Positions 27,850 to 53,396 of a stretch of 64,000 nucleotides of DNA are shown in pieces. The stretch's first letter is position 1. Each line of letters opens with the position of its first letter. A model generated the notes under the pieces. It was not told the origin of the DNA, ran no database searches, and was given only the letters and a program-made list of their open reading frames with translations. The position numbers and the translations under genes were made by a program. The stretch comes from an uncultured Bacteroidales bacterium (GTDB taxonomy: Bacteria > Bacteroidota > Bacteroidia > Bacteroidales > ML635J-15): the NCBI GenBank assembly GCA_964448235.1, contig CAYUWD010000002.1, positions 307-64,306 of the forward strand. Direction: 5' to 3'.

Positions 27850-30339
27850 CTAAGAATAAGCATTATCAGACACAATTCTGCGTTTTCCAAAATACTTATA
27901 TAACAGCTTTATCAAAAACCTTCGATCAATTGGCTTTGAAATATAATCATTACAACCTATTTTTAATACCTTCTCTCTATCTTTAGAAAAAGCATACGCG
28001 GTTTGTGCAATAAGAATGACATCTTTATTAAAGCTTCGTATCTCTTTGGTAGCTTCATACCCGCCCATAAGAGGCATATTTATATCCATTAATACTAAAT
28101 TTACATCTGGATTTTTCTTTAAATATTTTATCGCATCAATTCCATTTTCAGCTCTATGAATTTTTGATGCAACAGGTTTTAGTATAAGTCTTAGATGTTC
28201 ATAACTTATTTCATCATCTTCAGCAATTAGTATGCTTATGCGTTTCTCAATAATTGAATTTGACATTTCTTGATTTGACACAATTTCATTTTCAACTTGT
28301 TTAGGTTTATTAACCCAAGGGATAGTAATATGAAAAACCGACCCTTTATTTGTTTCTGACAACACACTAATACTACCACCTAATATCTCTACATAAGCTT
28401 TAGTAATAGACAAACCTAAACCTGAGCCTTGTCTAGCATGGGTATCACTTATATCTGCTTGTTCAAATCTATTAAAGATAGAATTTATCCTATTAGGAGG
28501 GATTCCTATACCAGTATCAATAATCTTAAATTCAAATCTTTCTCCATTTTTATAAGAGAGTATCTTTATGCTTCCTTTATCAGTATATTTTATTGCATTT
28601 TTTATTAAATTTGAAATAATTGAATTTAATTTAACCTTATCTGTATATATATATGAATCACTGAATGGAATAGTACTAATAAGTTTCATGTTAATGCCCT
28701 TTGCAGTGGCTTCACCATTAAAAAACTCAAATTGATTTTCTAATTCCTCGTTAATATTAATAATTGAGTTTGAAATTTTTATTTGTCCAGCATCTATTTT
28801 TGAAATGTCAACAATATTGTTAACTGTATTTAGCATTCTTTCACCACTCTTTTTAATAATTTCAACATATTTATGCTTTTGTTTTCCAGTTAAATCCGAA
28901 TCATTTAACAAATTAGTGAATCCAAGAATCCCATTCATCGGAGTTCTTATTTCATGACTCATATTCGCTAAAAATGCTGATTTTAACTTATCAGATTCTT
29001 GTGCTTTGATAAGCGCTTCCTTTAAATCTTTTTCTATTTTTTTTCGTTCGCTAATATCGAGGACTGTAATAAATCCTGAAAACACTCCTTGAATATTAAT
29101 TGAACTTCCATTTAACAATACCCATTTTTCCTGTCCTGATTTTGTTATTATCTTAAATTCATAATTTGTCCCAGATTGAATCCCCTGCTCTCTACCTTTT
29201 CCTCTTTTCCTTATTAAATCCTGATATTCTGGTGCAACAAAATCCCAAAAATTCATTTTCTTCAATTCTGCAAAAGTATATCCACTAATACGTTCACCAG
29301 CAGGATTTGAATATATCCATTTCTCTTTTTGATAAAGCATAATAGCCATTGGTGAAGTCTGCGCTAAGGTTCTGAATTTCTCTTCACTCTCAGCAAGAGT
29401 TTTTTCTGCTAAAGTACGTTCTGTAATATCCTGTCCAATAGCTATTAATAGGTTTTTTGAAACATCTGGAGAATTATATATTCCCGTATTCTGCCATGAA
29501 ATAATTCTCTCCTCTCCTGATTTAGTAAGTATTGGATTTATGCTAGAATGAGACGTATTCCCCCATGCTTCCTTCCATACATTTTTGATATTTGGAACAA
29601 TGTCATCATGTACAAAAATATCAATCCAATCTTTATCTATTACTTCTTCCTTTTTATATCCTGTTATTTTTTCAGCTCCCTTATTAAAAATTCTGATTAT
29701 ATGATTACAATCTAATCCAATAATTATTGCACTAGCTGTCTCTACAATTTTCTCAACAAACAACTTCTCCTTCATTAGTGCTCTTTCACTAAGCATAAGT
29801 TGTTGATTATTTGCTTCAAGTTGCTGATTTGCTGTTCTTAATTTTTCTGCATTTGAAGCTATTAGTCTTTTCTCATTGATTTCAAGTTTATTCTTTACAA
29901 GCCTTAATTCTTTTTCTGACTCAACTAATTCTTTGTTTTTGTGTCTAACATTTTTGTATAGATGTAATATCTTTTTACTATCTTCTACTATTCTCTTATT
30001 TACAAAACTAAATACAAAAGATATTACAACCACCGAAAAAGCCCTAAATACATCATTAATAATATTATAATCCTTTAAAAAATATATATGACTAAATATT
30101 AGCAATAATGCTAAAGTAATTGACACAAATATACCCTTTTTATGAAACCAAAATACAGCCAACACTCCAGGGAAATAATACAAATGTGTAAAAACATTCT
30201 CAGTTTTACTGTAATAATGAAAATAAATTGTAGAAATAATACATATAAGCATTAATAAAGAAACCACTATTATTTGAATTCCCTTTTTTTCGAAAAACAA
30301 ATTATCATCATTTTCTTTATTGATTTGTGAATTCTTCAA
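27850..30339 (-). CDS. Hybrid sensor histidine kinase/response regulator (TM - coiled coil - 2x PAS - HisKA - HATPase - REC)
   Basis: H-box 'FLANMSHEIRTPMNGILGF', 'DTGIGIP', 'GSGLGLSITKAYVEILGG', C-terminal REC 'ILIAEDDEIS...LVLMDINMPLMGGYEAT...KP'. Confidence 0.85.
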   Translation of the reverse strand: MKNSQINKENDDNLFFEKKGIQIIVVSLLMLICIISTIYFHYYSKTENVFTHLYYFPGVLAVFWFHKKGIFVSITLALLLIFSHIYFLKDYNIINDVFRAFSVVVISFVFSFVNKRIVEDSKKILHLYKNVRHKNKELVESEKELRLVKNKLEINEKRLIASNAEKLRTANQQLEANNQQLMLSERALMKEKLFVEKIVETASAIIIGLDCNHIIRIFNKGAEKITGYKKEEVIDKDWIDIFVHDDIVPNIKNVWKEAWGNTSHSSINPILTKSGEERIISWQNTGIYNSPDVSKNLLIAIGQDITERTLAEKTLAESEEKFRTLAQTSPMAIMLYQKEKWIYSNPAGERISGYTFAELKKMNFWDFVAPEYQDLIRKRGKGREQGIQSGTNYEFKIITKSGQEKWVLLNGSSINIQGVFSGFITVLDISERKKIEKDLKEALIKAQESDKLKSAFLANMSHEIRTPMNGILGFTNLLNDSDLTGKQKHKYVEIIKKSGERMLNTVNNIVDISKIDAGQIKISNSIININEELENQFEFFNGEATAKGINMKLISTIPFSDSYIYTDKVKLNSIISNLIKNAIKYTDKGSIKILSYKNGERFEFKIIDTGIGIPPNRINSIFNRFEQADISDTHARQGSGLGLSITKAYVEILGGSISVLSETNKGSVFHITIPWVNKPKQVENEIVSNQEMSNSIIEKRISILIAEDDEISYEHLRLILKPVASKIHRAENGIDAIKYLKKNPDVNLVLMDINMPLMGGYEATKEIRSFNKDVILIAQTAYAFSKDREKVLKIGCNDYISKPIDRRFLIKLLYKYFGKRRIVSDNAYS

Positions 30340-46779: not shown

Positions 46780-47118
46780 ATGGATAGTCGATTAAATCTG
46801 AAGCATTTCAACAAAACTGAATTGGCTGATATGCTTCGTAATAAAGAGCAAGATATTGAAGTCCTAACAAATAGTTACTTTAAAGAAATATATGGTTTTA
46901 TTAAAAAGCTAAGGCAGTCGGCAAAAGCTCAGGATAAGGAAATGTTTTTAAGATACGTCAGGAAAATTGCTATAGCAAGCAAGTCTGTCTGTTTTGAGAT
47001 AATGCACGTTTTAGCTCTTGAACTAGAAGATTGTGATTTGAACAGTCAATTAAAAATCCTTGATCATATTGATGATATGGAAAATGAGCTAGAGATTGTT
47101 AAGGATCTTATAAAATAA
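46780..47118 (+). CDS. Hypothetical small helical protein; possible Hpt-like four-helix bundle lacking the canonical His (speculative)
   Basis: 112 aa, predicted all-helical. 'FLRYVRKIAIASKSVCFEIMHVLALELED' loosely aligns with the Hpt pattern 'l.r.aHtLKGsa..lG...l...a..lE', with R in place of H. Convergent with the hybrid kinase gene. Confidence 0.3.
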   Translation: MDSRLNLKHFNKTELADMLRNKEQDIEVLTNSYFKEIYGFIKKLRQSAKAQDKEMFLRYVRKIAIASKSVCFEIMHVLALELEDCDLNSQLKILDHIDDMENELEIVKDLIK

Positions 47119-47157: not shown

Positions 47158-49104
47158 TTAAGACTTCAAATCTTTTATTTTTGACAGCAATTCTGATTTT
47201 TTTACAGGTTTTGTGATAAATTCATCACATCCGCATTCAAAAGCATAATCAATTTCCTCATTTACTACATATGCACTTTGTCCAATTATTGTTATATTTG
47301 GCAGCATATCTTTTATTTTTCTGGTTGCCTCAAAACCGTCCATAACTGGCATCCTAATATCCATTAGTATCAGATCTGTATCCATATTATTTTGGCAGAA
47401 TTGTAAGGCTTCAAAACCATTTTTTGCCCGGAATAATTTATTATCGGTAATTTTAAGCATATTCTTTAAGAGTAGATAGTTTGTCTCCTCATCTTCAGCT
47501 ATCAGGATTTTAAAATCTTTGTCGTTAAAATATTTATTCAGCCTGATTTCATCGTAATCAGGTATCTGACCAATTTCTGATTTTATCGGTACTGAAAAGT
47601 AAAATATCGTCTCTTTAGCAGGGGTTGATTTCAGCCATATTTCTCCACCGAGTAGTTTTACATAAGCTTTTGTAATCGAAAGTCCCAGGCCTGCTCCACT
47701 GAAGAGTTCTTCATTATTTGAATCTATACGTGTGAATTTCTTGAAGATCTCATCAAAAGATTCTTTAGGAATTCCAGGGCCGTTGTCTTTTACAAAAAAT
47801 TTTACAAACTTTTTGTCTATAGTATACCCGAAATTGATTTCGCCATTGATGGTAAACTTTATAGAATTATCTATTAAATTTGACAAAATTCTCATCAGTT
47901 TTGTTTTATCGGTATGCAAAGTCATATCTTTTGCATTTACCGGACAGATAACTTTAAGTTTTGAGTTTTGCTTTTTTGCTTTGTCACTAAACTGGCAAAA
48001 AATTAAATTACACGTTTCGTTTATATTAACATGTTCTGCATTTATTGCTTCCTGACCTGCCTCTATTGTCGCTATGTTGATGATATCGGTAATCACTGCC
48101 AATAATTGTTCCCCACTGTCAGTAATTATTTTTGTGAATTTTTTTATATCTTCCGACTTTGTGTCAGGCTCTGTAAGTAAATAAGAAAATCCCATAATTG
48201 CATTTAGAGGCGTTCGAATCTCATGAGATATATTATTTAAAAAAGCAGTTTTAAGACGATCGCTTTCTTCAGCTTTTTTAAGGGCTGTAAGCAACTGCGT
48301 TTCATGATCTTTATTCTTTGTTATATCATGCAGATATGTTACAAAACACCCTTCTTTATTCTCAGGTTCGACATAACCGGTGGAAATCAGTGCCCAAATT
48401 ATGTTATTGTTTTTATTAATAAATCTTTTTTCAAAAGTGAGCCTTTGCTGTTTTGATTCAGTAAGTTCTTTGTAAGACAGTTTTAAGCTATCATAATCTT
48501 CAGGATAGGAAATATCAAAAATATTGAAATCCAGAAGCTCTTTTTCTGTATAACCTAGAATATTACAGATTGTGTTATTGACTTTTAAGAATTTACCGTC
48601 TTTGGATATCAGACAAACTCCTGATGCGGCATTTTCAAATGCTGCTCGAAAAAGAGCTTCGCTTTCCCTGATCGAATATTGTGCCCGCTTTAGTTCTTTT
48701 TGGGTTTTGACATGCTCTAAAACCGAATGTATGGACAATGCAAGCCCTTTAATGTGCTTAACTGACTTAATTACATAGTCCGCTGCACCAAGCTTTATCG
48801 CCTGTATGGCTATTTCCTCGGAGCCTGTTCCTGTTACAATTATTACCGGGATCTCAGGACATACCTTTTTTACAAAATCAAGAACCTGCAATCCGTCAAA
48901 TCCAAGAATATTAAAATCACTTAAAATAACATCAAAAAACTTTTCTTTTAGTATATATTCAAATTCTTCTCTAGTTGCAGCCGAAGTAATATTAAAAGTG
49001 TCTCTTTCCTGCATTAAAGTATCCTTGATAAGTATCCTGTCAAGGATGCTGTCGTCAACATGTAATATCTCTATTTTTTTCATATTTTTAAGGTTGATTT
49101 GCAT
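47158..49104 (-). CDS. Hybrid sensor kinase: REC - PAS - HisKA - HATPase - REC
   Basis: N-terminal REC ('ILHVDDS...VILSDFNILGFDG...VIK'), PAS ('FRAAFENAASGVCLISKDGKFLKVN'), H-box 'FLNNISHEIRTPLNAIMGF', 'DNGPGIP', 'GAGLGLSITKAYVKLLGG', C-terminal REC ('ILIAEDEETN...LILMDIRMPVMDGFEAT...TKP'). Confidence 0.85.
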   Translation of the reverse strand: MQINLKNMKKIEILHVDDSILDRILIKDTLMQERDTFNITSAATREEFEYILKEKFFDVILSDFNILGFDGLQVLDFVKKVCPEIPVIIVTGTGSEEIAIQAIKLGAADYVIKSVKHIKGLALSIHSVLEHVKTQKELKRAQYSIRESEALFRAAFENAASGVCLISKDGKFLKVNNTICNILGYTEKELLDFNIFDISYPEDYDSLKLSYKELTESKQQRLTFEKRFINKNNNIIWALISTGYVEPENKEGCFVTYLHDITKNKDHETQLLTALKKAEESDRLKTAFLNNISHEIRTPLNAIMGFSYLLTEPDTKSEDIKKFTKIITDSGEQLLAVITDIINIATIEAGQEAINAEHVNINETCNLIFCQFSDKAKKQNSKLKVICPVNAKDMTLHTDKTKLMRILSNLIDNSIKFTINGEINFGYTIDKKFVKFFVKDNGPGIPKESFDEIFKKFTRIDSNNEELFSGAGLGLSITKAYVKLLGGEIWLKSTPAKETIFYFSVPIKSEIGQIPDYDEIRLNKYFNDKDFKILIAEDEETNYLLLKNMLKITDNKLFRAKNGFEALQFCQNNMDTDLILMDIRMPVMDGFEATRKIKDMLPNITIIGQSAYVVNEEIDYAFECGCDEFITKPVKKSELLSKIKDLKS

Positions 49105-49531
49105 TTATATTTAAAGAAAACCAATAATCGTCTATTTTTTTTACAACTTCGGTAAAGCCTTCGAAAGATACTGGTTTTAACAAATAGCTATTTGCTCCGC
49201 AATCATAACTTAATGCCCTGTCTCCTTCATCTCGGGAAGATGTAAGTATTATCACCGGTATTCGCTTGAGATAATCGGTATTTTTTATTTGTCTTAATAC
49301 TTCAAAACCATCTATCCCAGGCATTTTCAAATCCAGAAGGATTAGTGTAGGCATGGGATATTCATTTCGGTCCGAATATTTACCATGTCCAAAAATATAA
49401 TCCAATGCTTCCTGTCCGTTTTTTGCAACAGAGATCATGTTTGATAGTTTTGCCTGTTTAAAAGCATCAAGGGTGAGTATGATATCCATTTGATTATCTT
49501 CAACAAGTAAAATATTTGCTTTCTTTTCCAT
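49088..49531 (-). CDS. Stand-alone response regulator receiver (CheY/Rcp1-like, no output domain)
   Basis: 147 aa. 'ILLVEDNQMD', 'LILLDLKMPGIDGFEVL', 'PVIILTSS', 'NSYLLKP'. 17-nt overlap with the downstream hybrid kinase. Confidence 0.85.
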   Translation of the reverse strand: MEKKANILLVEDNQMDIILTLDAFKQAKLSNMISVAKNGQEALDYIFGHGKYSDRNEYPMPTLILLDLKMPGIDGFEVLRQIKNTDYLKRIPVIILTSSRDEGDRALSYDCGANSYLLKPVSFEGFTEVVKKIDDYWFSLNINANQP

Positions 49532-49539
49532 TACGATTT

Positions 49540-51378
49540 TTATTTATTTGGTAATTTAATTATAAATGTTGTTCCTTTGCCGGGCACGGAAGTAAGGCTG
49601 ATACTACCAAGCATCATTTCAACGGATTTTTTTACGCTTGCCAAACCAATACCTGTTCCGGGAAATTCTTCTTCACTATGCAGGCGTTGAAAAATATTAA
49701 ATATTTTTTCAAAATACTCTTCGGCAATACCAATCCCATTATCACTAACCTTTATCAATAATTCCCTATCATTATATTCGCAAAATATTTTTATCAATAA
49801 TTTCACATCCTCACTGCGATATTTTATTGAGTTGTCGATAAGGTTAATAAATATCTGTCTTGTTAAACTTACATCTCCTATAATAACGGGCAAAGGTCTT
49901 TCAATTGTGATTTCACCGCCAATATCATGAATCTTATTATTAAATTCTATTTGCATTTCCTCAAGAATTTCATTGAGATCCACCGGTTTAAGGTTTAGTG
50001 CTTTTCTTCCGAGACGGCTGTAGTTCAAAAGATCATCTATGAGTTGTTCCATACGTCGACTGGCCTGAACGACATAGTTCATATACTCCCTGCCTTCTTG
50101 GTTCAATGATTCTCTGTGGCGATTTGCAAGTATCTGGGAGAAACCGTAAACGGCCCTTAAAGGAGCTCTCAGGTCATGAGATATTGAATAGCTAAATGAT
50201 TCCAGCTCTTTATTTATTGTTGTTAACTGTATCGTTCTTTGCTCCACCCTGCTTTCAAGTTCGGCATTAAGTATGTTTAATTCGTTGGTTCTTTTTCTCA
50301 CTTTCGATTCAAGTTCCCTGCTTAACTTGTGCTTAATTTTATAATTGTTGTAAATTACTATTATTAAGAAAATAAACATTACTGTGAGCAAACCCAGTAA
50401 ATTCATATAGTTTCGCTGACGCTGTGTGATTTTTTTCTGTTCGTTGAGTTCATTTGATTTGTTTTCTATTTCCTGTTTTGTTTCTTCCAATTCAGCCTGT
50501 TGTACCTGCAATATTTCTTCGCCTTGCTGTATTTCGGATTTTTGAATATTTATATTATCCTGTAGTGATGTTAATAAGTCTTCCTGCTCCTTTATTTTAT
50601 GTTTTTTATTCTCCAGTTCTGTTTCGCGTAATTGCAATAACCCTGTCTGGGTATTAAATATTTTGTGTTGTTCTAGAATCTTAAAATTTAACATATTAAG
50701 ACTGTCACGGATAAGATTAAGTTCTTTTCTTGCAGTTTTATTGGACTGTTTCAGACTCTCAAGATCTTGTTGCAGTTCTTTAAACTGTTTATTTTGCTCC
50801 CTTAAGTTTTGCTGACCTTTGAAATATAATTCGGCCACATCAACTTCGGTTCCGCCAAGCAAAATGATATCGGGAGATACTTTCAGGTGTTGATTGATAA
50901 TATTTGCATTATTAATCTCGAATTTTAACGAACCGTCAGGATGATCTATGAAATTTATCATGATGTTTGACTGGTCGCCGTAGTTATCAGTGACTAACAG
51001 GGTGTTTTTGCTTTCAATCATGTCATATAAAAGAGACGGATCAATATCGAACCCGGGAGATAAATATATCAGATGTATATTCTCAAAGCTGATTATGTCA
51101 GCTGATCTTTGTACTATAATTTTTTTCCCTCTCAAAAGATATGTTTCCGACATTTTGGAGATGTTTTTGTAAACATCTCTGCTATCGCCAAGTATAAGGA
51201 ACTGGAATTTGTCAATAGAGTCTTCATTATCCCAAGTAATGTTTTTTGAAAAATTGTAAAGATATGCGCTTACTGCAACATCACGGTTAACATTTTGCGA
51301 TATGCATGGTTTGCTACTGATTGCCATTAGCACAATAAAACAAACTGTTATATTTATAATTAATCTTTTTGCTGGCAT
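49540..51378 (-). CDS. Sensor histidine kinase with periplasmic YfiR/DUF4154-like domain and long coiled-coil stalk
   Basis: Signal/anchor, then 'VSAYLYNFSKNITW...FQFLILGD...GKKIIVQR...IHLIYLS...TLLVTDN...IMINFI...LKFEINNANI...LKVSPDIILLG', matching the DUF4154 pattern. Next a ~150-aa Q/E/K-rich coiled coil, TM 'LLGLLTVMFIFLIIVIY', H-box 'FSYSISHDLRAPLRAV', and 'DNGIGI...GTGIGLASVKK'. Confidence 0.8.
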   Translation of the reverse strand: MPAKRLIINITVCFIVLMAISSKPCISQNVNRDVAVSAYLYNFSKNITWDNEDSIDKFQFLILGDSRDVYKNISKMSETYLLRGKKIIVQRSADIISFENIHLIYLSPGFDIDPSLLYDMIESKNTLLVTDNYGDQSNIMINFIDHPDGSLKFEINNANIINQHLKVSPDIILLGGTEVDVAELYFKGQQNLREQNKQFKELQQDLESLKQSNKTARKELNLIRDSLNMLNFKILEQHKIFNTQTGLLQLRETELENKKHKIKEQEDLLTSLQDNINIQKSEIQQGEEILQVQQAELEETKQEIENKSNELNEQKKITQRQRNYMNLLGLLTVMFIFLIIVIYNNYKIKHKLSRELESKVRKRTNELNILNAELESRVEQRTIQLTTINKELESFSYSISHDLRAPLRAVYGFSQILANRHRESLNQEGREYMNYVVQASRRMEQLIDDLLNYSRLGRKALNLKPVDLNEILEEMQIEFNNKIHDIGGEITIERPLPVIIGDVSLTRQIFINLIDNSIKYRSEDVKLLIKIFCEYNDRELLIKVSDNGIGIAEEYFEKIFNIFQRLHSEEEFPGTGIGLASVKKSVEMMLGSISLTSVPGKGTTFIIKLPNK

Positions 51379-53396
51379 TTTGGATTTATTGTATATCTGG
51401 CAGTAAATAAGATACTTCGCTGGGCCTGCCTGTATCTGTCTGGATCCCAGTTTGAACTGTGATAGTATTTTTTATTAAAAATGTTTTTTATTGTTATCTG
51501 AAAAGCCATTCCAAACTGAGTGCTTGCTGTTATACTGCCGTTAAATAATATATACGGGTCTATAATATCGGAACCTGTTGCCTGGATTAGTGTAGGGTTT
51601 TTCCTTTCTCCTACATAATTTGCCCGAATATTCATTTTGAAAAATCTGTTCATAGCATAGGTAATTCCGGCATTGGCAACGTGATCACTTATCTCTTTAA
51701 CTTTTTGTCCGGTTTCATCAAAACTCTGACAATATGTATAATTAAAATACGGGTATATTTTGCCGCTCAGGTAAAATACAGAAAATTCCGTTCCGATAGT
51801 GTTAATATAACCAAAATTTATCCATCTGAAGGATTCCTCAGTAAATTGTTTTATTAAGGTATTCTCAAGTTGATTGTCATATGTCGCAATATCAAGCCTG
51901 AATTTAGGACAGGGCTGGTATCTATACGCAAATTCATATGAAACCAGTTTTTCGGGTAAAAGATTCGGATTTCCTAACCCATCGCTGTAATCCCATGGTT
52001 TTGGTGCTCTAAAAGCCTCTGAGTATGAAAGCCTAAAAATATGTTTATCTGTTAAGTTGTATATTATTGCAAGTCTTGGAGTAAAAACCCTGTCGTAGAC
52101 AGTGCTAATATCATATCTAACACCACCTGAAATATCAAACCCCGGAAACAAATTGAAAAGCGGCTCCAAAAATATACTTAAAAGTTGGTTTTGAATCATT
52201 TCCGGCTTTTCAGGCTTTGGAGGCCTGTAAATTATAGAATCGCTGCTTGACCAGCTCATTTTACTTGATAATGACTCATATTCAAATAATATTCCGGTTG
52301 TCAGTGATATTTTTTTGAAAGGTATATAATTAAAAACATGTTCGGTGCCGATGAGGTTATTTGGTCTATAATAACCTATCTGCGCAGTATCGGTAACATA
52401 ATATACAGTATTGCCCAATACCGTTGCATTACGGTTATATACTATAGATTGTAAAGACAAATATTTATTTATTTCAGCGGAATATTTGACATAAGAGTTG
52501 TTGAACTGTATATTCCAACTTGTCCCAAAATCTTTGTATTCTGTTCCGTATGATTTTATTATACTGGCTAGGGAAGATTTTTTATACATGTAATTTGTGC
52601 CGAATATCAGATTTTTATATTCTGCCTTGAAATTAAAACTGAAGTCTTTTTCAAAGTTGTCCATCAGGTCTGTCCAGTTGTTATCTCCCTTTTCCAGTCT
52701 TAGATCAGCCTTATCGCTTTGTTTATATTGTCCTGAAACAGAAATGCCTCCCGTATTTGATTTATTGGCTTTACGTAAACAGAAGTTTCCGGATGCAGTG
52801 TTAAACGAGCCGATTGTGGTTGAAGCCCCGACACATTCCTGATCATATTTTTTTGTAATTATATTTATTATTCCTGTAACGGCATTTGCTCCATAAACAA
52901 CAGAAGACGGACCATAGACAACTTCAATTCTATCAATGTCAGATAAAATTATTTGTCCCCCTGTATAAAACCCGCCAGAATTAAGTTCATTGACCTGTAC
53001 CCCGTCAATAAGTAGTAATGTGAGATTGTTTTGATTCGGAACACCTCTTTGAAAAACATAGGAATTAAAACCCATGATATTTCTGAATTGGAACCCAGGC
53101 AGATCACACAAAATTTCTTCAAAAGTAAAGTAGCCGCGATCCTGTATTTGCCGAGCTGTAATAACAAATGTTGCTGCAGATAGTTGATTGTAATCCTGGC
53201 TGACTTTCGAAACAGAACTTACTTTTAACTGCGAAAGTTGCCTGAGATCCATTTCCCATATATCAATGCTGTCGTTTTGAGCTTTTACTAAATCTGAATA
53301 GATAAGAATTATTATAAGACATGTCAATTGTCGAATATGTACAATACTTACCATATACTGAAAAACTCTGTATATTAACAATGATTTCATGTTCAA
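51360..53396 (-). CDS. TonB-dependent outer-membrane receptor (plug + beta-barrel), no N-terminal signalling extension evident
   Basis: Plug motifs 'LLIDGVQVN' and 'IDRIEVVYGPSSVVYGANAVTGIINIITK'. C-terminal barrel ends in aromatic-rich strands. 19-nt overlap with the downstream kinase gene. The start may be an internal Met. Confidence 0.8.
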   Translation of the reverse strand: MNMKSLLIYRVFQYMVSIVHIRQLTCLIIILIYSDLVKAQNDSIDIWEMDLRQLSQLKVSSVSKVSQDYNQLSAATFVITARQIQDRGYFTFEEILCDLPGFQFRNIMGFNSYVFQRGVPNQNNLTLLLIDGVQVNELNSGGFYTGGQIILSDIDRIEVVYGPSSVVYGANAVTGIINIITKKYDQECVGASTTIGSFNTASGNFCLRKANKSNTGGISVSGQYKQSDKADLRLEKGDNNWTDLMDNFEKDFSFNFKAEYKNLIFGTNYMYKKSSLASIIKSYGTEYKDFGTSWNIQFNNSYVKYSAEINKYLSLQSIVYNRNATVLGNTVYYVTDTAQIGYYRPNNLIGTEHVFNYIPFKKISLTTGILFEYESLSSKMSWSSSDSIIYRPPKPEKPEMIQNQLLSIFLEPLFNLFPGFDISGGVRYDISTVYDRVFTPRLAIIYNLTDKHIFRLSYSEAFRAPKPWDYSDGLGNPNLLPEKLVSYEFAYRYQPCPKFRLDIATYDNQLENTLIKQFTEESFRWINFGYINTIGTEFSVFYLSGKIYPYFNYTYCQSFDETGQKVKEISDHVANAGITYAMNRFFKMNIRANYVGERKNPTLIQATGSDIIDPYILFNGSITASTQFGMAFQITIKNIFNKKYYHSSNWDPDRYRQAQRSILFTARYTINPKCQQKD

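Follow-up and report, generated by a model that had tools for sequence, protein, structure and literature searches.

A 64,000-nt stretch of DNA from an uncultured Bacteroidales bacterium (assembly GCA_964448235.1, contig CAYUWD010000002.1, positions 307 to 64,306; hereafter the window), whose closest named relatives are Bacteroidales metagenome-assembled genomes (MAGs), carries on its minus strand a block of four genes that encode a TonB-dependent receptor (TBDR), a histidine kinase with a YfiR-like (DUF4154) periplasmic head, a single-domain response regulator and a hybrid kinase (Table 1). Judging from comparative genomics and from the anatomy of the encoded proteins, the four genes probably constitute one trans-envelope signalling cassette, in which the head of the first kinase would read the state of the receptor.

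In a preliminary description of this DNA, the block had been read as four packed minus-strand open reading frames (ORFs) that overlap by 19 nt (51360-51378) and by 17 nt (49088-49104) and leave one gap of 8 nt; both the ORF positions and the three junctions, with the gap at 49532-49539, were recovered from the sequence. Pfam hidden Markov models (HMMs), which that description had proposed as a check, placed Plug, TonB_dep_Rec, DUF4154, HisKA, HATPase_c, REC and PAS in the expected genes, and detected no STN, CarboxypepD_reg, HAMP, CHASE, GGDEF/EAL, Hpt or DNA-binding domain in the four proteins. Consistently with what had been noted before, the receptor has no STN-like extension (its plug starts ~30 residues after the signal peptide), the cassette has no local output domain, and neither a sigma/anti-sigma pair nor SusD was present among the genes flanking the block. 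The phospho-acceptor motifs of the cassette (His401, Asp67, Asp63, His294 and Asp582) were all intact. Gene callers placed the probable start of the receptor at ATG 53390, which gives a protein of 676 aa.

Table 1. Coordinates of the four genes and of the features within them (positions in the window)
Feature	Position	Strand	Description
TBDR gene	51360..53396	(-)	678-aa ORF from TTG 53396
TBDR signal peptide	53280..53390	(-)	Residues 1-37 from ATG 53390; putative cleavage after VKA
Conserved N-terminal peptide DSIDIWEMDLRQLSQLKVSSVSK	53205..53273	(-)	Short extension plus TonB-box-like strand; directly after the signal peptide
TBDR plug	52869..53183	(-)	Pfam PF07715, residues 72-176 of the 678-aa ORF
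TBDR beta-barrel	51363..52664	(-)	Pfam PF00593, residues 245-638; strands in the AlphaFold 2 (AF2) model
YfiR-headed histidine kinase gene	49540..51378	(-)	612 aa; Pfam DUF4154, HisKA and HATPase_c
Kinase signal peptide	51295..51378	(-)	Residues 1-28; hydrophobic segment 3-21; putative cleavage after ISQ, by analogy with cleavage between AQ and Q in homologues
Periplasmic YfiR-like head	50854..51285	(-)	Residues 32-175; Pfam DUF4154 37-174
Periplasmic coiled-coil stalk	50410..50838	(-)	Residues 181-323, 143 aa, ~21 nm; AF2 helix
Single transmembrane helix	50353..50409	(-)	Residues 324-342; hydropathy; part of the continuous AF2 helix
Cytoplasmic signalling helix into the dimerization and histidine phosphotransfer domain (DHp)	50203..50352	(-)	Residues 343-392; AF2 helix; no HAMP (Pfam)
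HisKA/DHp	50008..50202	(-)	Pfam; phospho-acceptor His401 in SHDLRAPL
HATPase_c catalytic domain	49546..49875	(-)	Pfam
Single-domain response regulator gene	49088..49531	(-)	147 aa; Pfam REC; Asp67 in LLDLKMP
Hybrid kinase gene, REC-PAS-HisKA-HATPase_c-REC	47158..49104	(-)	648 aa; Pfam; Asp63, His294, Asp582

The receptor and the YfiR-headed kinase

The receptor matched the Pfam Plug (1.7e-17) and TonB_dep_Rec barrel (7e-33) models, and its AF2 model consisted of a plug and a barrel, with a predicted template modelling score (pTM) of 0.78. BtuB was its best match in the Protein Data Bank (PDB), with a template modelling score (TM-score) of 0.84-0.86 at 17% identity, and the fold search otherwise yielded generic TonB-dependent transporters. 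More than 2000 homologues at 50-57% identity were found, and a complete plug-and-barrel TBDR of such a large, well-conserved family argues for a real ligand. NCBIfam gave sub-threshold matches to siderophore and B12 families only, and no inference on the ligand class was drawn from them. With its 676 aa, and lacking both a CarboxypepD_reg domain and a SusD neighbour, the receptor does not belong to a SusC/SusD pair, in which SusC has ~1000 aa.

In the AF2 model, the N-terminus of the receptor forms a helix over residues 2-32, followed by a linker of low confidence. Directly behind the signal peptide lies a conserved peptide (Table 1) with the consensus D-I-Y-x-L-S-L-x-(Q/E)-L-S-K-L-K-I-T-S-A-S-K. 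Its first half is a 12-residue extension (consensus DIYxLSLxxL / DIYxLSLxQLSK), of which we know no counterpart in classical receptors such as BtuB, FepA and CirA, and its second half is a TonB-box-like strand (KITSASK). In the window, this strand reads KVSSVSK and stands before the plug at the distance expected of a TonB box, which is its putative role. The peptide was modelled as a short helix and a strand at predicted local distance difference test (pLDDT) values of 52-61, suggesting that it is flexible.

The DUF4154 (PF13689) match of the first kinase covered residues 37-174 at 1.4e-16 and 61.3 bits, against a cut-off of 24.9. The single head sequence gave no match in the PDB and a profile was needed, the DUF4154 profile matching YfiR chains at E = 6e-9. 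When the kinase was modelled with AlphaFold from an alignment of 21 homologues (mean pLDDT 81.8; head 80-92) and the modelled head was searched against the PDB with Foldseek, 15 YfiR chains ranked first (TM-score 0.72-0.76, E 5e-8, ~16% identity). The DUF4154/YfiR assignment made at first reading therefore holds by HMM, PDB profile and predicted fold. The next fold matches after YfiR were the Rhodothermus marinus substrate-binding proteins 5z6v and 6k1y (about 155-158 aa), which may, by this model comparison, be unrecognised YfiR-fold proteins.

The best-conserved region of the family comprises the C-terminal strand and helices of the head (LKFEINNANII...LLGGTEVDVAELY) and corresponds to the YfiR surface used to bind YfiB as well as YfiN. 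Within it lies the LKFEIN segment, which the profile alignment matches to ITFEAN of YfiR and which holds F153, a residue without variation in alignments A1 and A3. Binding of YfiR to the outer-membrane protein YfiB occurs through strand augmentation and a hydrophobic pocket once the N-terminal segment of YfiB unwinds (PMC4655355), and this partner-binding pocket sits over a central Phe (PMC4655355; PMC3375315). The periplasmic part of the first kinase contains no cysteines, so that the redox-sensing Cys residues of YfiR are missing.

The whole periplasmic part had initially been taken for a YfiR-like domain. This applies to the head (residues ~32-175), but a 143-residue helical stalk (181-323) stands between it and the membrane, and this periplasm-length coiled coil, overlooked in the preliminary description, is the most telling feature of the protein. 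AF2 predicted one unbroken helix from residue 181 to 392, through the stalk, the transmembrane helix and the signalling helix, with pLDDT >90 over the stalk. The stalk has 0 Pro and is rich in Q/E/L/K, and its 3.5-residue hydrophobic periodicity, which exceeded that of 2000/2000 shuffles, stays in the same heptad register all the way from the head to the membrane. At ~1.5 Å per residue its length comes to ~21 nm, roughly the width usually quoted for the Gram-negative periplasm. The distance from head to transmembrane helix was 140-170 residues in 69 of 70 fused homologues, irrespective of the output domain. Stalk lengths clustered at 141, 148, 155, 162 and 169 residues, with modes of 148 in Bacteroidota and 162 in Cellvibrionaceae, and the stalk indels in the alignment were of 14, 14 and 7 residues, that is, heptad steps. 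A rigid spacer of fixed, heptad-quantised length argues that the head is kept at a set distance from the inner membrane, namely at the outer membrane.

Variants of this module were also observed. The head-stalk-transmembrane unit is fused to PP2C/SpoIIE phosphatases and GGDEF domains in loci L075, L089 and L092 and in proteins P0306 and P0307, P0306 having a DUF4154-GGDEF architecture, and P0177 (543 aa) consists of three DUF4154 repeats. In locus L175 and in Thalassotalea (P0308, P0315), DUF4154-stalk-transmembrane kinases have a phospho-acceptor region of another kind, with the H-box AHEINTPL, that goes undetected by the Pfam HisKA model; this clade keeps the long stalk, with a 14-residue insertion, and L175, the only locus of it examined, has no adjacent receptor.

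Conservation of the receptor-DUF4154 pairing

DUF4154 sequences amount to roughly 16,000 clusters. Linkage of the two genes was surveyed from both sides. The DUF4154-seeded survey took one genome per species (80 loci) through our own ORF and HMM pipeline plus Pfam, and a TBDR gene was found at most 700 nt away, and in nearly all cases on the same strand, in 65 of the 74 evaluable loci. In the TBDR-seeded survey of metagenomes (80 loci, 70 evaluable), a DUF4154 gene stood directly downstream of the receptor in 67. As the window has one TBDR among ~55 genes, adjacency by chance would be ~4%, compared with the 88-96% observed. The preliminary description had asked whether this gene order extends beyond a single genome; in both surveys the pairing was kept far beyond the source genome, and it was seen in >130 related loci from several phyla.

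The TBDR gene lies upstream in Bacteroidota, Ignavibacteriota/Melioribacteraceae and one Campylobacteraceae MAG, and downstream of the DUF4154 gene in ~30 Cellvibrionaceae. Three TBDR clades, mutually ~20% identical, take part in the pairing, suggesting different ligands, and the transmitters paired with them comprise histidine kinases (HK), HK-REC and PAS/GAF-HK proteins and PP2C/SpoIIE phosphatases. Since gene order, receptor clade and transmitter all vary, the pairing is not one inherited operon. A search of a plasmid collection with the Cellvibrio head and stalk gave no match.

The N-terminal peptide was present in 137 of 138 linked TBDRs, 119 of them by the strict pattern and 18 of the 19 misses as variants recognised by eye; the sole linked receptor without it is the STN-type receptor of locus L079. 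Between the TBDR clades the 22-residue motif was 33-48% identical, against 17-21% for the remainder of the protein, and is thus 1.6-2.4 times better conserved. The heads paired with clade-1 and clade-2 receptors could not be told apart, so that, if the head recognises the receptor, its target would be something that the clades share.

A split form of the system exists as well. In 31 receptor-seeded loci the TBDR gene is followed by that of a free DUF4154 protein (147-220 aa), and the next gene, where present, encodes a kinase. The kinases of split loci had the architecture CHASE8-HAMP-(PAS)-HisKA-HATPase_c in 7/7 scanned, and in L088 as well. In E. coli, DgcN/YfiN is a CHASE8-GGDEF protein with a periplasmic CHASE8 domain, YfiR is the DUF4154 protein and YfiB is OmpA-like. 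Because CHASE8 is the periplasmic domain of YfiN, the split design follows the logic of YfiBNR, with the TBDR in the place of YfiB. On the sequence evidence, one TBDR family serves both a shuttle design (free YfiR-like protein and YfiN-like kinase) and a tether design (fused head, as in the window). Distant YfiN-YfiR pairs were reported to be nearly always without YfiB and may carry kinase outputs, TBDRs not being mentioned there (Malone 2012, PMC3375315).

A further arrangement was seen in Bacteroidales MAGs from horse faeces (L005, L008, L084 and L085), where a free 167-aa YfiR-like protein and a TBDR-like protein occur as two or three tandem pairs. These TBDR-like proteins have 930-1000 aa, no kinase nearby and a longer, duplicated N-terminal motif (MSxEELSDLSxEELM ... 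NKNVSSASK).

Downstream of the first kinase, a single REC gene was found in 60 of 65 fused and 17 of 21 split loci of Bacteroidota and Ignavibacteriota type, and a REC-(PAS)n-HK(-REC) gene follows it in 53 fused and 14 split loci; this recurrence makes the four-gene order of the window the norm of the family. For a multi-step phosphorelay, the block provides a hybrid kinase with a C-terminal receiver (Asp582) and His294, and no Hpt or output domain in its four genes. No conserved DNA-binding regulator or Hpt protein was found near the cassette among the related loci, and the Hpt and the output regulator may be encoded elsewhere.

Outputs were sporadic at other loci (a REC-HD protein of Pfam HD_5, a REC-PP2C protein and a convergent REC-PAS-GGDEF-EAL gene). 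In the Ignavibacteriota/Melioribacteraceae loci L017, L019, L020, L026 and L119, a PAS-kinase of 1200-1430 aa is conserved directly upstream of the receptor, and in L019, L020, L026 and L119 extra REC genes (REC-HK, single REC) follow the cassette, giving signalling clusters of at least six genes. In Cellvibrio loci, two conserved proteins (310 and 505 aa, no Pfam match) are encoded directly upstream of the DUF4154 hybrid kinase, and a CheB methylesterase and a REC-EAL protein ~3.5 kb upstream of it (L068:47-2313, with equivalents in ~10 Cellvibrio loci).

Proposed signal passage from receptor to kinase

We consider it somewhat probable, at roughly 0.55, that the four genes form one trans-envelope signalling cassette whose phosphorelay has the TBDR as its input, with the receptor contacting the YfiR-like head. 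The first kinase is single-pass and, as a histidine kinase, presumably dimeric, and its head would be carried by an uninterrupted parallel coiled coil to ~21 nm above the inner membrane, which would place it just beneath the outer membrane. Ligand binding by the TBDR would change the state of the N-terminal receptor peptide, both its 12-residue extension and its TonB-box strand, which is the candidate docking site of the head, and the head would bind or release this peptide through the conserved YfiR partner surface (the edge strand and the pocket around the invariant Phe). The change would run along the stalk and the single transmembrane helix straight into the DHp, a direct entry suggested by the lack of a HAMP domain, and would alter the autophosphorylation of His401. 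Phosphate might then pass to the single REC, to the N-terminal REC of the second kinase or to both, and from this hybrid kinase to its own C-terminal REC and on to an Hpt protein and a regulator encoded elsewhere. The cassette would amount to a fused YfiBNR-type circuit in which YfiB has given way to a TBDR, the diffusing YfiR together with the CHASE8 receptor to a tether, and the diguanylate cyclase to a kinase.

The two genes could also belong together without contact of their products, if the TBDR only transports a small molecule and the YfiR-like head binds the imported molecule and switches the kinase; we regard this as rather unlikely, at about one chance in four. PfeS/PfeR respond to enterobactin imported by PfeA, and Bacteroides hybrid two-component sensors to SusC-imported oligosaccharides, and conserved adjacency alone would fit such a route equally well. 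Structurally, YfiR comes closest to lobes of type I periplasmic binding proteins (PMC4655355), and it is substrate-binding proteins of Rhodothermus that follow YfiR in the fold search. In the PahS-PahP-PahK system, a TBDR was demonstrated by experiment to pass an external signal to a kinase by way of a periplasmic protein, which the receptor binds and to which ligand is handed (Wang 2023, PMC10570129). The same system shows that a periplasmic intermediary bound by a TBDR can activate a kinase, and that contact and ligand hand-over can coexist. Import followed by sensing would leave unexplained the rigid, 143-residue, heptad-quantised stalk that holds the head ~21 nm from the membrane, and since sensing a ligand that diffuses freely does not obviously require a rigid spacer of fixed length, the stalk speaks for contact. 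It would likewise leave unexplained the receptor peptide, conserved across clades that are ~20% identical, and the split form with its YfiR-YfiN protein-protein architecture, and no ligand pocket was identified in the head.

It is much less probable that the cassette, like YfiBNR, reports the state of the envelope, that is, envelope stress, periplasmic width or TonB energisation, rather than a particular nutrient, the TBDR being mainly an outer-membrane anchor or reporter whose N-terminus becomes available upon disturbance of the envelope or the proton-motive force. Among its components are homologues of YfiR and, in split loci, of the YfiN CHASE8 receptor, and YfiBNR is described as answering periplasmic and cell-stress signals (PMC4655355, PMC4887326); a rigid stalk of fixed length could, moreover, serve as a ruler. 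Against this stand the complete plug and barrel of the TBDR and the size and conservation of its family, with their bearing on a real ligand, the use of three receptor clades, which points to different ligands, and the redox-sensing cysteines of YfiR, which the periplasmic part of the window kinase does not have. Least probable of all is co-regulation without sensing, in which a shared operon reflects control of receptor expression by the two-component system, or mere inheritance, for although two-component genes commonly lie beside the TBDR genes that they regulate (e.g., pfeSR-pfeA), the cassette has no DNA-binding regulator to close such a loop, and the pairing is specific to DUF4154 regardless of output, be it HK, PP2C or a free YfiR-like protein without a kinase, and outlasts both gene-order inversion and receptor-clade replacement.

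Head-TBDR distances correlated at r = 0.70, compared with 0.72 for the head and its own kinase core, and the partial head-TBDR correlation given the kinase was 0.53 overall and 0.56 in clade 1, which is suggestive, and not decisive, of coupling.

Several observations weigh against the proposed receptor-to-kinase signalling. The partial correlation drops to 0.07 within Cellvibrionaceae, and its vanishing there means that the co-divergence may be mostly shared ancestry. TBDRs of the same family without a DUF4154 neighbour still carry the peptide (L012 and L128), and fused kinases without an adjacent TBDR occur in L042, L062 and L077, and in L175 of the Alteromonadales-like clade. As the YfiR fold amounts to one half of a periplasmic binding protein, direct ligand binding by the head is plausible, and the four genes form a putative operon, judged by spacing and synteny. 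Receptors without a DUF4154 neighbour were found in L149 and L162 as well as in L012 and L128.

If the receptor does engage the head, a broader proposal follows, which we put forward tentatively and hold to be somewhat short of an even chance. A YfiR-fold head, either free or mounted on a coiled-coil ruler, would capture a switch peptide at the receptor's N-terminus, made up of DIYxLSLxxL and the TonB box, possibly in competition with TonB, and ligand occupancy would be passed directly to a kinase, PP2C or cyclic di-GMP (c-di-GMP) output. TonB-dependent cell-surface signalling would then have a third mode, with wide occurrence in Bacteroidota, Ignavibacteriota and Cellvibrionaceae, and the TBDR would be the missing outer-membrane partner of the many YfiB-less Yfi systems noted in 2012.

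Known systems and sequence context

To our knowledge, inward signalling by TBDRs is known in essentially one way, from an STN domain to an anti-sigma factor and on to a sigma factor of the extracytoplasmic function (ECF) type, and one recent second example, PahSPK, operates through a shuttling binding protein. With transducers of the FecA/FecR/FecI and FpvA type, the window system would share the signalling of ligand occupancy by a TBDR by means of the periplasmic N-terminal region beside its TonB box, but it has no STN domain, anti-sigma or ECF sigma factor, and its receiver is a kinase. In an Agarilytica MAG (L079:7898-10363), the receptor beside the DUF4154 kinase has 821 aa and carries at its N-terminus an STN-like domain instead of the short motif, and is possibly a hybrid between the classical transducers and the TBDR-DUF4154 system.

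The cassette resembles YfiBNR (TpbB; P. aeruginosa, E. coli) and HmsCDE (Yersinia) in having a YfiR-fold module that would bridge an outer-membrane protein and an inner-membrane transmitter. The outer-membrane partner of YfiBNR is, however, the OmpA/Pal-like lipoprotein YfiB, whereas that of the window is a TBDR, with no OmpA-family gene present. YfiN has CHASE8, HAMP and GGDEF domains, none of which Pfam found in the window kinase, where the output is a histidine kinase phosphorelay, and YfiR is free and shuttling, whereas the window module is tethered by its 143-residue coiled coil, shares ~16% identity with YfiR and lacks the cysteines.

The PahS-PahP-PahK-PahR system of Cycloclasticus likewise encodes a TBDR of similar size (687 aa), an intermediary and a kinase together (PMC10570129). 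PahP is a free, two-lobed, 318-aa ligand-shuttling substrate-binding protein, whereas the intermediary of the window is, compared by description, a fused YfiR-fold half-domain, and PahR is a DNA-binding regulator of GacA type (PMC10570129), of which the window cassette has none.

PfeS/PfeR-PfeA and the hybrid systems of Bacteroides SusC/SusD also place a TBDR gene beside a two-component sensor, and their signal depends on what passes the receptor; in these, the imported molecule is bound at the inner membrane, the output is DNA-binding, and there is no YfiR head or stalk. RcsF-IgaA and NlpE-CpxA involve a protein that reaches across the periplasm, so that the distance between the membranes matters, but the proteins are unrelated and the reaching element is the linker of an outer-membrane lipoprotein rather than the coiled coil of a kinase.

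No description of a TBDR paired with a DUF4154/YfiR domain was found in the full-text literature searchable without subscription, and neither the YfiR-YfiN kinase pairs (PMC3375315) nor the PahS relay (PMC10570129) combines the two. The pairing of receptor and YfiR, a head tethered by a stalk of periplasm length and the coexistence of shuttle and tether designs thus appear to be undescribed, whereas the components and the general logic are already known from YfiBNR, TBDR cell-surface signalling and PahSPK.

Should the proposed coupling be true, a large unstudied class of receptors would report, via a YfiR-fold module, to two-component, PP2C and probably c-di-GMP pathways. This class would comprise thousands of homologues in Bacteroidota of anaerobic digesters, sediment and gut, in Ignavibacteriota and in polysaccharide-degrading Cellvibrionaceae, and would account for the replacement of YfiB in the many Yfi-like systems that do without it. 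The width of the periplasm would become a testable parameter of signalling. The free shuttle and the rigid tether are a natural pair of designs for studying how signals pass over the periplasm, and the input helix of the kinase, unbroken over ~210 residues from sensor to DHp, is an attractive model of coiled-coil signal transmission.

The block is flanked by genes for a DHH phosphoesterase and FKBP isomerases on one side and for Tex and a 2-oxoacid:ferredoxin oxidoreductase on the other. Parts of it had been described as richer in G+C than the neighbouring genes; the hand counts given for this (29/60 and 20/60) were right, but the difference is not meaningful, since the block (33.9%) is comparable to neighbouring Tex (34.4%) and the oxidoreductase (36.4%), the window as a whole having 30.5%. 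A G+C island was therefore rejected, the block not standing above the adjacent housekeeping genes (34-36%). In a scan for separate promoters, sigma-70-like sites inside the block numbered 38, against 36.2 expected from shuffled sequence, and a scan for the terminator consensus also equalled the shuffles. The Bacteroidota -7 motif TAnnTTTG did not occur upstream of the receptor and was at or below background density inside the block.

A 112-aa ORF at 46780-47118(+), convergent with the hybrid kinase gene, resembled an Hpt by eye and is included in the gene predictions of the source metagenome contigs. As a candidate for the missing Hpt it was rejected, having no Pfam Hpt match and no HxxKG motif; it belongs to no Pfam family and has no homologue in ~160 related loci. 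A second large sensor protein of 829 aa, with similarity to kinase cores and receivers and unrelated to the cassette, is encoded at 27850-30339 (-) of the window.

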